Assembly: GCA_951406725.2 (NCBI GenBank)
Contig: OX597838.1
Location: forward strand, 15,810,001-15,874,000
Direction of reading: 5' to 3'
Source: Octopus vulgaris
Taxonomy: Eukaryota
DNA length: 64,000 nt
In this document: positions 13,579 through 47,085 of the stretch, piece by piece
Numbering within the stretch: the first letter of the stretch is position 1
Layout of the letters: each line of letters starts with the position of its first letter
Program-made: the position numbers and the translations under genes
Notes under the pieces: generated by a model
Told to the model about the DNA's origin: nothing
The model's input: the letters and a program-made list of their open reading frames with translations, nothing else
The model's database searches: none

Positions 13579-14878
13579 AAGATAAGAAAATGGAGAAATA
13601 CATCTAAATCAAATATCAATTATTAGATAATACTCAATCACATACTTTATTAAACCACCACATAAGAGACTGTAGGGTTAAACATAAAAAAGCAGAACAA
13701 ATCAGTGTACACAAAGGAATGTACATAAAAAAGTGTACATAAAAGAGTAATGTTGTATAATAAGTAGAATATATATAAAAAAGAATATAAATATAAGTAA
13801 ATATAAATATAAGTATAGATTACATCTTACAGCTGTTTCGGCCATGTAGATAAGTATGTCTCATTTTACCAATATTAGCCTTTTATGGTAGGTCAATATA
13901 TGGATATAAATGAGACATTTACAAAAGTATCATAAGGCCTCTTCGGAGATCGTGAATGTGTAGCGATGTGTCGGGGTTTACTCATGTGTGTGGGTCTTTA
14001 TGTGGACGTGTGGGTTTAGGGTTGGATGTGGATGTGTATGTTTTTCTTGTGCGGTGTGGGGGCGGCTCTCAACGGACCAACCATGAGGAAGACAATGATA
14101 ATTTAAATTCAAATCCGATAGTGTATTTATGTCATAAGGAAAATTACTAAATGGAACCCGGACATACATGTGTGCCACTTTGGATCCTAACGTAAGCGAT
14201 ATTAATAATATTATGAATGATAATGATGGTAGCATTAATGGTATTGACAACGATAATGATGCTAACTTTAATGACACTTTGGAAATTAGTAGGAAGTAAT
14301 ATAATGTACTATTGACTATGTATATTTGCATCTAGATACTAATATGTGTATGTTTATTATCACAATATTAAGTTGAAAAACTGAAACATTGGATGTGGAG
14401 CACATATATGTTTACTAATTTATATTATTTATTTACATTATTATGTATATGTATATTTTTATATGTATAGGAGTGTGAGTATATGCACTCATTTGTATAT
14501 GTATATCTCCGAAGAGGCCTTATGATACTTTTGTAAATGTCTCATTTATATCCATATATTGACCTACCATAAAAGGCTAATATTGGTAAAATGAGACATA
14601 CTTATCTACATGGCCGAAACAGCTGTAAGATGTAATCTATACTTATATTTATATTTACTTATATTTATATTCTCTTTTTTATATATATTCTACTTATTAT
14701 ACAACATTACTCTTTTATGTACACTTTTTTATGTACATTCCTTTGTGTACACTGATTTGCTCTGCTTTTTTATGTTTAACCTTACAGTCTCTATGTGGTG
14801 GTTTTAATAAAGTATGTGATTGAGTTTTATCTGATAATTGATATTTGATTTAGATGTATTTCTCTATTTTCTTATCTT
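13579..14878. mobile_element. Penelope-like insertion with inverted terminal units of about 372 bp (13579-13950 minus, 14505-14878 plus)
   Basis: Arms are near-identical reverse complements. Each begins at a hammerhead motif, and the right arm ends after AATAAA. Confidence 0.75.
14502..14634 (+). ncRNA. Type I hammerhead ribozyme-like motif with long stem II (inverted copy at 13821-13950)
   Basis: Stem I TATATCT/AGATGTA, core CCGAAGA (U4C variant), stem II GGCC/GGCC enclosing about 92 nt, GAAA, stem III ACAGCTGT, triplet GUA. Confidence 0.72.
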
Positions 14879-15065
14879 CTATATATATATATATATATAT
14901 GTGTGTGTGTGTGTGTGTGTGTAAATATATATGTGTGTGTGTGTGTATAATAATTATTATTTGAGGGAATAGAATCGAAACTTACAAGGAAAAAGAATTC
15001 AATTTAGAAATACTAAATCAAATTCCACACAATATAATATATATATAAAATATTAGGAAAAAAAA

Positions 15066-15268
15066 CATCTAGAAAATTACATATAATAGAAAAGTTAACA
15101 TTAAAATAACAATAAAAAGTAAAGATTAAGTAAATTGCAAAAATAAAAATAAAAATATATATAATAGGTAGATTTTTATTATTATTTTTGCAATTTACTT
15201 TTTTGCAATCTTTACTTTTTATTGTTATTTTAATTTTAACTTTTCTATTATATGTAATTTTCTAGATG
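15066..15268. repeat. AT-rich inverted repeat, about 80-bp arms
   Basis: CATCTAGAAAATTACATATAATAGAAAAGTTAA... mirrored by ...TTAACTTTTCTATTATATGTAATTTTCTAGATG. Confidence 0.85.
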
Positions 15269-42963: not shown

Positions 42964-45900
42964 TTCAGTCACGGTGACATCAAAGGCTGACCAGGAAACA
43001 CCTGCCGCCTTGACAAAAACTCCTTATGCATTGATCCTGTTTTAAGGGTCAATCTGTTCGTAGTTCAGAGGGGCGAAGCAAAAGAGGGAAATGAGTGGGC
43101 TTAGCAAAGCTCGGGTGGGATGGGGTGCAGTTAGGGAGAGTAAGGTACATGACGGGATAGATGGGAGGTGGAGCAAGGGGGCAGAGAAAGGAGAGGGGTT
43201 TACCAACCGCACCCATCCCGGAAACAAATTCAAATGTTCAAGCGAAGACTCTACTGGTGGATAAATCCTTTCCACCGAAATCATCGCGCGCCTTACGTCC
43301 TTTCGGGGTCGATAAAATAAGTACCAGCTGCGGACTCGGTGTCCATGTAATCGACTAACTCCCTCGGTGAAATTTCTGGCCTTATGCCAAAATTTGAAAC
43401 CGTTATCATTGTTGTTGTTGCTATATGTGAGTGTGTGTATGTGTGTGTGTGTATTTATCTTATGAGTATTTGCGTGTATGCATGCATATGTGTGTGTGTG
43501 TGTGTGTGTGTGTGTGCTTGTGTGTATCTATATAATACTATTATGTATATATCCATGTATATTATCTATGTGTCTATATATATATACATATATATATACA
43601 TATACATATATATATATACATGTATAAAAAATAAATATAAAAATACAAAATGGGACAAGAACGCAAAACATTCAAATAGACGATACAAAAAACGCCTCTA
43701 ATCTTCAGTCAAGAACCAGATCATCCTCGCAATTTCGGCTGATATTTACATATACATGCAAACTATTTCATATTTATGGGTGAGTGCAGATGCACATATG
43801 TATCTATGAACTTGTCTTTTGTGTGTGTGTCTATTTGTCTGGACTTCCTAATTCCTCTCAGTGAGGAAGAAGGTTTTCCAATACGTTTAACATGGTCGAA
43901 CATAATTTAAATGCCACCAAATCACAAAACGCTAACAATGTTATGTAATGACTGTAACCACTACCACCTCCCCATACCACCACCACCATCCTCACCAACA
44001 CTATGATCACTAACACCCTAAGCACCACTACTACTGAGTTAAAACACCAGCAAAAGCCCGTGTTAAGTACAGTCACCAGCCGCAGCAGCAGCAACACCAC
44101 CACCACCAACAACAACAGCAGCAGTACCAGCGTGGCTACGAGTGTTGACTCTTATTTCTAGCAATGCTGGCAAAAATTTCTGCTAAATTATCTTATTGCT
44201 GTTTGTTCAAACGCTTATTAGGATTTTACCAATCCGCCATCTTCGGATAAAAGCTGGCATATCAGAGAGAGAGAGAGAGAGAGAGAGAGAGAGAGAGAGA
44301 GAGAGAGGAAAAGGAGGGAGAAAAGGGAGAGAAACAGAAACGGAGAAAAGGTACCAAAATGGAAGAGTTGACAGCAACAGGATGAAAGACAGAGTGTGAG
44401 TTATAATTAGATGCACATAGATAGATAGGTATGTATGTATGTATGTATGTATGTATGTATGTATGTATGTATGTAGGTAGGTAGGTAGGTAGGTAGGTAG
44501 GTAGGTAGGTAGGTAGGTAGGTCGGTAGATGGATGGATAGATAGATAGATAGATAGATAGATAGATAGATAGATAGATAGATAGATAGATAGATAGATAG
44601 ATAGATAGATAGATAGATGAATTTGTGGTCAAAATTAGGAGACATTTTAGAAAAATAACGGCTGCATTATATTAGAAGTAATATTGGGAAAAGTAACAAA
44701 AACGAACAGGGAAATTTACAAGAAAAACGAAAGGAAATCCTTTACAATTCCGGTCCTAAAATATTATCCTTCATCAAACAGTGTCTCGTTGCGAGAGGAT
44801 TAAAAAAGAAAGTGTAAAATATAAAACGAAATCATCAGAGAAAATACCTTATTTTACAAAAAAATACGATAATAATGAGACACAATGTGAGAATATATAA
44901 GGTACAAAACAAAACGAATGTATATATGTGTGTACGTTTCGTTTTGTACTTCCATGAATAGAAAGGTGCGTGTGTAAGCACACACATATTGTCCATCTAT
45001 ACATCTATGTATCTATCAATCCATAGTCCCTGCATTCTCCATGTCAAGTAATCTCTTAATCAACATAGATTAAAAGCACTAGATCCTGTTTCACCACCGC
45101 AACCATATAGGCAATAGTGTAAGATAAGGTCCATTTTACAACGTATCAAAGTAATTTCATGTTTTTCTTACATCAAATCAACACATCCTATGGCGTAATA
45201 GCTCACTTTTACGTTATAAGAGCGAGTTTATTTCTACCTGCCCACACAAAGCCAAATTCATCCTCGGAACTTCAATATATGCGTGTATGTGCATATGTGT
45301 GTGTGTCACGCGTGTGTGTACAGAGAGAAAGGGAGCGAGAGAGAGAGAGAGAGAGAAGAGAGAGAGCGAGAGAGGAAGAGGAAAGAAAGAAAGCTGAAGA
45401 GAGTAATTAGGGGCACCAAGTACTCTGGTTCCTCACAGTTAATCCTTATCGCTTGCATTTAGTCTCAAGAGTTTTGACTCTAGATGAAATCGTTGGTCAC
45501 TGAGAGACTGAGGGGTTTTTGAACCTTTCAACTCTCGCAATCAATAATAAATGCATGCATGTATATATATATATATATATATATAAGTACACGCACACAC
45601 ACATATATATATATATATACGTGTATCTCTCTCTTTCTCTCTCTCTCTCTATCTATCTATCTATCTATATATATATATATATATGTGTGTGTGTGTGTAT
45701 ATATATGTATATGTATGTATGTATATATATATATATATATATATATATATATATATATATATATATATATATATATACATATACATATATATATATATAT
45801 ATATATATACATACATACATACATATACATAAGTATATACATACATACACACACACACGCACACACGTACACTCATTTATTTATACGTGTGAATATGTGA

Positions 45901-46957
45901 ATGTTTGTATTGCAAAGGAAGGGTCTAATTTGTAAACTGTATTGTTAAAAGGATGTTGTGGGAACTACGTTAAGTAGAAAAATCATTGGAGCGTGAAAGC
46001 TAATGGAAATTTTATAACATACATGCATGCATACAGACATCGACAGACAGATATGTATATACACATACATGTGGAAACAACAAAACACATACCGTGTATG
46101 CGTGTGTGCCGCGCGCAAGTGTGTTTGCGTATGTGTGTGAGTGTGTGTGCGCGTGTGTGCGTGTGCGTATTGACACACCTCAACAAACACATGCCATCCG
46201 CTTTACCGCAGCACACAATCCTGAAACGTAGGCATACACACATGCACATACATACATACATACATACATACATACATACATACATACATACATACATACA
46301 TACATACATACATACATAAAACATACATACATACATACATACATACATACATACATACATACATACATAAAACATACATACATACATACATACATAATAC
46401 ATACATACATACATACATAATACATACATACATACATACATACATACATACATGCATACAACGTTAAAACAACCATTAATAGTCACATCCAAATCGGCAT
46501 TTAATGGAGTGTTGTAGAATGAAATAATAGGTAAGTGTTGACAGTGGAATATATAAATATATACACACATACGTACTCGCCCGCACACACACTCACGCAT
46601 GCGCGCGCATATGTTTATGTGTAAGAGCGATATATATATATATATATCAGCCGAGATTGCGAGGATGATCCGGTTCTTGACTGATGATTGAGGGCTTCGA
46701 ATGTCCCGTCCTGTGTTTCTTGTGTCGTCTTCTGGGTGTTTCACGTTCTTGTCCCGGTTTGTATATATTTTTTTAACTTGTACATATATATATATATATA
46801 TATATATATATATATATGGTTATTGTATGGGGAAGATGGGGAAGATAAATATATATATATATATATATATGTATATATATATATATATATATATATATTC
46901 CCCATCTTCCCCATACAATAACCATTCCTCAAGTACTCTGCTTGCTATTTCCAGAAA

Positions 46958-47085
46958 TGGCTCTGACGAAAGTAGCATTAATTTTCTTAGGTTTTCCAAT
47001 GTTCCTCAATTGATCATCAATAGACCGGTTGAGTAAACCTATCAGTAATGTACCTATGTTGACTACTGGAAACAGCTGTAAGCCA
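46958..47085 (+). ncRNA. Type I hammerhead ribozyme-like motif with long stem II
   Basis: Stem I TGGCT/AGCCA, core CTGACGA, stem II AGTAG/CTACT (basal pair A-G mismatched) enclosing about 87 nt, GAAA, stem III ACAGCTGT, triplet GUA; AATAAA about 10 nt downstream. Confidence 0.7.

Follow-up and report, generated by a model that had tools for sequence, protein, structure and literature searches.

Long-armed hammerhead ribozyme motifs in Hydra-clade Penelope-like retrotransposons of Octopus vulgaris

A 64,000-nt stretch of the Octopus vulgaris contig OX597838.1 (the window; all coordinates are positions in it) carries four hammerhead ribozyme motifs, F1 to F4, in which stem II is drawn out into an arm of 58-100 nt. 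Judged by their sequences, these motifs and an inverted copy of F1 are confirmed as type I hammerheads whose stem III is self-complementary, and they almost certainly belong to Penelope-like elements (PLEs) of the Hydra clade. The long-arm form is the commonest hammerhead form in this genome. On balance, we favour a model in which the long stem II would act as a folding brace and not as a separate functional domain.

Four hammerhead motifs in the window

The F1 hammerhead (14502..14634, +) combines stem I (14502-14508/14628-14634), the core CCGAAGA (14509-14515, a U4C variant), a 100-nt stem II hairpin (14516-14615) and GAAA (14616-14619). The palindrome ACAGCTGT (14619-14626, +) contains the insert CAGCTG, which is followed by TA, and cleavage is predicted after 14627, the H17 position. 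A second F1 hammerhead, inverted and 5'-truncated, lies at 13828..13950 (-; motif 13828-13946), in a copy that begins 4 nt ahead of the core. The inverted arm of this F1 insertion (13396..13950, -) includes a 3' tail extension at 13396-13580 and terminates in (TA)n, while its direct arm (13952..14882, +) is from a 5'-truncated Hydra-clade element, of which it holds the distal 3' untranslated region (UTR), the hammerhead and the 3' end.

The F2 hammerhead (21792..21887, +) has the core CTGATGA at 21802-21808, a 58-nt stem II at 21809-21866, GAAA, and AATATG in stem III, with the predicted cut after 21878. Upstream lies a remnant of a Hydra-type GIY-YIG endonuclease (20944..21138, +; E 5e-9 in a profile hidden Markov model search; 82% to the F2 locus L102), and between the two the F2 3' UTR is split by another repeat and a (TA)n run (21219-21555). 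A 5'-truncated F3 copy (23844..24183, +) contains a hammerhead at 24047-24139 with the core TTGAAGA (24052-24058), a 64-nt stem II (24059-24122) and CACGTG, and is predicted to be cut after 24134. In the 5'-truncated F4 copy (46910..47138, +), the hammerhead spans 46958-47085, with the core CTGACGA (46963-46969), a 99-nt stem II (46970-47068) whose first pair is an A.G mismatch, CAGCTG, and a predicted cut after 47080.

The original prediction had named these four motifs, and all were found in place, together with the inverted F1 copy. GAAA, an NUH cleavage triplet, and helices I and II flanking the core are present, although stem I is merely 2-4 bp long in several F1-related subfamilies. A descriptor comprising stems I and II, both core halves and the 6-nt palindrome recovered only the four motifs in the window when 5-bp stems and up to 2 deviations were set; a 5-bp version gave 2 window matches and none in 40 shuffles. 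Shortening the stems to 4 bp and allowing no more than 1 deviation yielded 4 window matches (F1 twice, F3 and F4; F2 requires 2 deviations), compared with 1 in 200 block-wise dinucleotide shuffles. An Rfam scan of the window had no hammerhead family among the best 150 of 532 matches, and none of the 18 matches in six other loci, short-armed copies included, was a hammerhead, indicating that Rfam misses such motifs irrespective of arm length.

Family majorities and core deviations

Searching the genome (2.8 Gb, 227 contigs) revealed each motif as a dispersed high-copy repeat, with 1322, 280, 1007 and 1295 first-look candidates for F1 to F4, respectively. Among 40 scored candidates, identity to the window copy was 98-100% for F1, 85-91% for F2, 95-97% for F3 and 83-88% for F4. 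The 5' ends of copies are variable, and an inverted partner is frequent.

Each window copy had been credited with about one deviation from the canonical core or stems, and decay had been suggested for some. This applies to F2 and F3, where the family majority restores the core: CTGATGA in F2 (27 copies; majority stem III CATATG) and CTGAAGA in F3 (C3 in 86% of 44 copies; position 24052 is C in all F3 contigs from presumed RNA runs). Since both majorities are intact, the window defects of F2 and F3 represent decay. Deviations in F1 and F4 are instead features of the families. The F4 majority is CTGAYGA (34 copies) and opens stem II with A.G, comparable to the unpaired T..T in many Hydra hammerheads, where an unpaired base on each side of the foot is common (ctgatgat / tgaa; Craig 2021, PMC8557442). 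F1 departs from the strict U4: position 4 is C in 97% of the 33 copies compared, and U in sister subfamilies. A further family with a 31-nt arm, F5, has U4C in 96% of 52 copies. This natural variant is less active in vitro but is sufficient for a viroid (Perreault 2011, PMC3088659). Private changes within families hit the arm about as often as its flanks, as expected for dead copies.

Abundance and arm-length spectrum

The exact pattern CTGAHGA-N(45-110)-GAAACANNTGTA has 17,613 matches in the genome (reversed-pattern control 122), and the same core pattern with an N(8-44) arm has 5,369 (control 55). These patterns omit U4C families, stem III of odd length and decayed copies, and a few motifs are counted in both. 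The expectation that short-spacer searches would miss such motifs is supported, core searches in Craig 2021 (PMC8557442) having used a spacer of 7-17 nt; length-limited searches would undercount about fourfold here, as 5,369 of 22,982 pattern matches have arms below 45 nt.

Diversity of the class, as proposed, is considerable: the loci retrieved contain 127 distinct motifs, which form 29 clusters. Their arms cover all lengths between 14 and 118 nt in a continuous spread, apart from one 9-nt cluster caused by false internal pairing. Most long arms are predicted to form a single irregular, unbranched hairpin with ~20-40 pairs, and the longest word common to the four window arms is at most 8 nt. 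In one lineage with related flanks, arms measure 21, 25, 28-29 and 61 nt, a series which suggests growth at the tip. The idea of an inserted domain in stem II is therefore not supported, given continuous lengths, the lack of a common sequence, mostly one unbranched hairpin, and a series compatible with tip growth. Stem II is better described as a lengthened arm, conserved in its fold.

For comparison, 46 of 78 metagenome Hydra-type loci carry a hammerhead, every one with an arm of 10-39 nt. Most of the 32 loci with no hammerhead match end early, and about 10 of them have at least 350 nt downstream and could harbour deviant motifs. Inverted pairs are listed for short- and long-armed motifs alike, and a long arm is thus unnecessary for inversion.

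Tandem repeats with ~480-bp spacing were also observed (L387-L391; G000 C8 89254845-89257922). The hammerhead of L387 has CCGATGA, a 58-nt stem II and a CGGCCG palindrome, and the array is possibly a long-armed retrozyme.

Host elements

Walking upstream from F1 disclosed a GIY-YIG domain ~1.9 kb before the core and then a reverse transcriptase (RT) open reading frame (ORF), read at L142/L143, with RWK, DKT, CxCX5C, CxxC and CxH. These are marks of Hydra-clade PLEs, in which the GIY-YIG domain is C-terminal and carries CxxC and CxH (Craig 2021, PMC8557442). Endonuclease and short RT pieces were recovered for F2-F4, and RWK/DKT were not seen in them. Linkers were read in F1, F3 (CxCX3-4C) and F4, whose pieces are decayed, and C-terminal motifs in F1, F2 and F3; CCHH was not seen in these sequences. 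An endonuclease on the same strand lies upstream of F2 in the window itself and at L037, upstream of F3 at the mutually homologous loci L368, L369 and L374, and upstream of F4 at four loci, two of which include the hammerhead and the other two the UTR (F4 endonuclease loci: C10 L378+L079, C16 L377). Endonucleases beside the F2 copy L032 and the F3 copy L062 come from other families and were left uncounted. At L370, L373 and L374, F3 copies neighbour a GIY-YIG of another PLE type, with a CxxC linker and histidine-rich; no hammerhead was found in its available downstream DNA, up to 1.5 kb.

Pfam did not recognise the RT and endonuclease pieces, and a profile was built from 60 of 100 homologues. 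The three best homologues include an Argonauta protein, and the nearest protein relatives are P0001-P0003 and P0006, one of them from Argonauta.

Insertion into (TA)n, inverted 5'-truncated copies, two 3' ends and a 3' type I hammerhead are further features shared with Hydra-clade PLEs (PMC8557442). Size differs: the Hydra elements listed in Craig 2021 are mostly <3 kb, with a hammerhead stem II of ~10-26 nt (PMC8557442), while in the octopus long-arm families the arms measure 45-118 nt, 3' UTRs reach 0.6-3 kb (2.6-3.0 kb in F3), and the F1 unit is ~5 kb, its copies aligning over 5.2 kb. The 3' UTR is ~200 nt in F5 and has a median of 112 nt in metagenome relatives (36 downstream motifs). Copies in the genome end 46-415 nt beyond the predicted cut on its 3' side. 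F1 has two 3' ends ~180 nt apart, with 33 and 15 matches at the main positions (window 13396-13580, -; L142).

Quick trees were built from endonuclease domains of these families and of unassigned, Argonauta and metagenome relatives, using 43 rows and then 32, after removal of 11 long, gappy or redundant ones. One side holds F1-F4, two families with 55- and 57-nt arms, and proteins of three or four relatives (unassigned or Argonauta), and the other holds F5 and the metagenome elements; branches are long and support is weak (SH-like approximate likelihood ratio test, SH-aLRT, 93 and 87). The four motifs had been described as unrelated, which is correct for nucleotide sequence and not for ancestry, since all four families are in one retrotransposon clade, and probably in one sub-lineage. 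A single origin of long arms is neither shown nor rejected by these trees.

F5 (L486-L535, e.g. L516:2390-4540) is a Hydra family of very recent activity, with a 2.6-kb unit. Its endonuclease is present in at least 150 near-identical copies, several 717-aa ORFs are intact, and 3' ends fall at +46 and +141 relative to the cut. Its hammerhead has U4C, a 31-nt stem II, a 7-nt stem III insert and a GUU site, and the family would be a good substrate for biochemistry. By eye, it resembles Hydra-1_Obim.

Two other origins were considered and rejected. Naiad PLEs do not fit, the endonuclease being C-terminal, not N-terminal; the Craig 2021 supplement gave no match to the three 3' half-sites, although a match spanning a line break would escape. 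Non-LTR retrozymes are short non-coding tandem units, and the copies studied here are dispersed and reach into the coding region.

Palindrome and predicted cleavage

That stem III would be unable to fold alone agrees with the 8-nt palindromes, whose self-duplexes are predicted at -11.1 (ACAGCTGT), -7.0 and -10.3 kcal/mol, with no monomer fold for ACAGCTGT. A perfect 6-nt palindrome is present in 85 of 101 long-arm motifs, two of its three pairs having been demanded by the search; most of the Hydra motifs listed in Craig 2021 (PMC8557442) and of the metagenome motifs have inserts of 7-8 nt. The minimum-energy fold of F1 is hammerhead-compatible, with core and palindrome unpaired.

PLE transcripts reading through tandem pseudo-long terminal repeats (pseudo-LTRs) contain two hammerheads, whose palindromes pair as a common stem III (PMC4209133, PMC6765202). 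In the octopus, the window copies are 5'-truncated 3' ends of four Hydra-clade PLE families, each with its type I hammerhead. Because a palindrome of 8 nt cannot close a hairpin, stem III would be shared between both hammerheads of one tandem pseudo-LTR transcript. The dimer would cut element RNA after GUA, slowly and perhaps aided by an element protein; dimer activity of minimal PLE hammerheads is low in vitro (PMC4209133). On this analysis, cleavage after GUA is likely. Most genomic copies continue upstream of the predicted cut, and copies reaching past it imply a template that was uncut or religated. A few 5' junctions lie within ~25 nt of the cut (L142, L140, L284, L069, L519).

Maintenance and role of the arm

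F1-related motifs with arms of 85-120 nt have 928 exact matches (control 0). From this group, 95 copies gave 29 clusters, 17 of them with at least 2 members, and consensus sequences 44-91% identical; arm length is ~97-100 nt (94-110 nt in the 17 subfamilies with at least 2 copies). Neutral drift was modelled by re-placing the substitutions between consensus sequences at random positions, with the proximal 4 bp protected (25 draws). In the 12 largest subfamilies, 76 of 86 ordered pairs were more stable than every null draw (median z -4.1). Across 20 chosen copies, 77.8% of cells are paired (helices 70-82%), and double changes occur in 18 of 36 pairs. The covariation score is 0.228, compared with 0.176 in shuffled (0/500) and 0.06-0.11 in slid alignments, and three of five covariation measures exceed all 500 shuffles. 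Covariation, proposed as a check on the fold, is therefore present in the F1 group, both in the drift test and in the 20-copy alignment. More generally, fold stability is beyond z -2 in 26 of 36 long arms. The fold of the arm is maintained, probably through selection on source elements and perhaps with a mutational contribution.

The folding brace is the reading we consider somewhat better than even. According to this model, growth of the arm took place at the tip, within a sub-lineage in which 3' UTR and tail expanded too. Selection on source elements would favour pairing among the added bases, which would otherwise invade the weak core and stem I, and such a brace would place little demand on arm sequence or length. 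It is favoured because lengths are continuous, no motif is common, stem I is weak, and UTRs are long and AT-rich.

Several observations weigh against a brace in a working ribozyme. The F2-F4 copies in the window fold 1.0-5.4 kcal/mol better as non-hammerhead forms, and F1 bears U4C, which lowers activity in vitro (PMC3088659). Contigs of presumed RNA runs (F1- and F3-like, assembled, and as such unable to reveal ends or levels) span predicted cut sites, and 5' ends of genomic copies showed no clear peak at the cut with hammerhead-covering queries, low complexity blurring F1. In vitro, PLE hammerhead cutting is dispensable for insertion (Frangieh 2024, PMC11167929). The near-constant arm length of the F1 group exceeds the needs of a pure brace, and the correlation of UTR and arm is confined to one weakly supported clade (SH-aLRT 87-93). 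As to the fold, the structure was derived from the tested sequences and the 86 pairs are non-independent; 23 of 500 shuffles reach the number of pairs with double change, and 437 of 500 that of further pair types. The sense strand folds better than the antisense in just 22 of 36 arms, and with so little strand bias, selection at the RNA level is not separated from a mutational process.

The stable length of F1-group arms, their recurring helix stack, and some near-invariant positions across 30-55% divergence would also suit a family-specific recognition element for the RT-endonuclease, serving RNA choice, hammerhead activation or the position of internal priming. An anole PLE hammerhead cuts only with the element protein, and reverse transcription starts at a downstream stem-loop (PMC11167929). 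Yet neither sequence nor shape is common to the families, short-armed Hydra families such as the young F5, with its intact ORFs, transpose well, and genomic 3' ends lie past the cut, not within the arm. We regard recognition as a less likely alternative, and its most specific form as slightly more doubtful still, namely that a cephalopod Hydra sub-lineage made stem II a family-specific 60-100 nt protein-docking arm coupling ribozyme activation to RT recognition. If that were true, most hammerheads of this genome would have a form that standard searches cannot see, and dozens of natural arm-protein pairs would allow a direct test of RNA choice and processing by PLEs.

Folding without strand bias would fit an arm that is a by-product, in which case RT slippage and fold-back template switching lengthen and re-perfect hairpins while the ribozyme tolerates them or is dead. 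AT-slippage at the tip is visible in the 25- and 29-nt forms and in one 122-nt copy, UTR and tail have expanded as well, and U4C is fixed in two young families. However, the arms are irregular, with many G-U pairs, and are not perfect palindromes, core and palindrome recur over 29 clusters (mostly demanded by the search), and stability exceeds that under neutral drift. We consider this origin improbable.

Least likely of all is a ribozyme turned on by processing of its arm, which would conceal a retained spliceosomal intron or be a regulatory hairpin edited by ADAR. Cephalopods are known for heavy A-to-I editing, and the F1 arm has a slight excess of A>G (8/1089 vs T>C 2/1155, p 0.058), while F2, F3, F4 and F5 have none; no ADAR footprint was found in these counts. 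A Penelope intron abuts its hammerhead (PMC4209133), but GT[AG]AG..YAG occurs in 0 of 36 long arms (1.0 expected) and no joint was seen inside the arm in 8 presumed RNA runs, and an intron was rejected.

Comparison with known hammerheads

Stem II is extended in amniote intronic hammerheads. Like minimal PLE hammerheads (Cervera and De la Pena 2014, PMC4209133), the octopus motifs are type I, with palindromic stem III and a short stem I, and they share many sequence families per genome and opposite-strand pairs 100-700 bp apart. The short stem II of that group (4-8 bp plus loop) was not found, the domains measuring 58-100 nt; a 'larger than usual' helix II there is 6-8 bp (PMC4209133), as is the 'long helix II' of PMC13725137, against ~20-40 predicted pairs here. 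A long stem II is not without precedent, because two spike-moss PLE-X hammerheads have ~48-54 nt and were flagged there as non-canonical (Craig 2021 File S2). They come from two plant families without endonuclease, their arms are half the length of F1/F4, and no analysis of them is given there.

The anole Poseidon element PAc (Frangieh 2024, PMC11167929) likewise has a pseudo-LTR hammerhead and two 3' ends defining a tail. It belongs to another clade, with a tail of 30-40 bp vs ~180 nt in F1 and 95 nt in F5, and its protein-dependent cleavage was tested, while cleavage here is predicted. Animal non-LTR retrozymes (PMC7229834; bioRxiv 10.64898/2026.07.22.740005) are similarly type I, thought to act as dimers and to use PLE machinery; they are non-coding tandem units of a few hundred bp, and F1-F4 derive from coding elements, of which they are the truncated ends. 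In the literature searched, with supplements covered in part, no PLE hammerhead was described as having a stem II arm of 60-100 nt. Already known are the class of ribozyme, its host elements and the design as a dimer. New here are the genome-wide counts, the links of four families to endonucleases, a comparison set with short arms, the drift test and the recurrence of U4C.

Other features of the window

A near-intact long interspersed element (LINE), presumably L1/Tx1-like, lies at 1252-4729 (+), with an endonuclease ORF of 312 aa and an RT ORF of 840 aa followed by long (TATC)n arrays. An AT-rich near-perfect hairpin of ~45 bp at 22360-22455 is possibly a miniature inverted-repeat element. 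At 37043-37965, a 184-bp unit is repeated in five tandem copies 98% alike, and its sequence is also dispersed at other loci. A fragment at 62834-63448 (-) we take, from its motifs, to be a mariner-like transposase.

Significance

PLE hammerheads cut slowly, may depend on a protein of the element, and proved dispensable in the sole in vitro system. Having arms of 14-118 nt in one genome, with more than 17,000 exact-core copies and dozens of families, the octopus offers a natural deletion series. Fixation of U4C in two young families bears on whether fast cutting matters, and the presence of young families at both extremes of arm length (F1 with 100 nt and F5 with 31 nt) makes the question of brace versus RT binding addressable.

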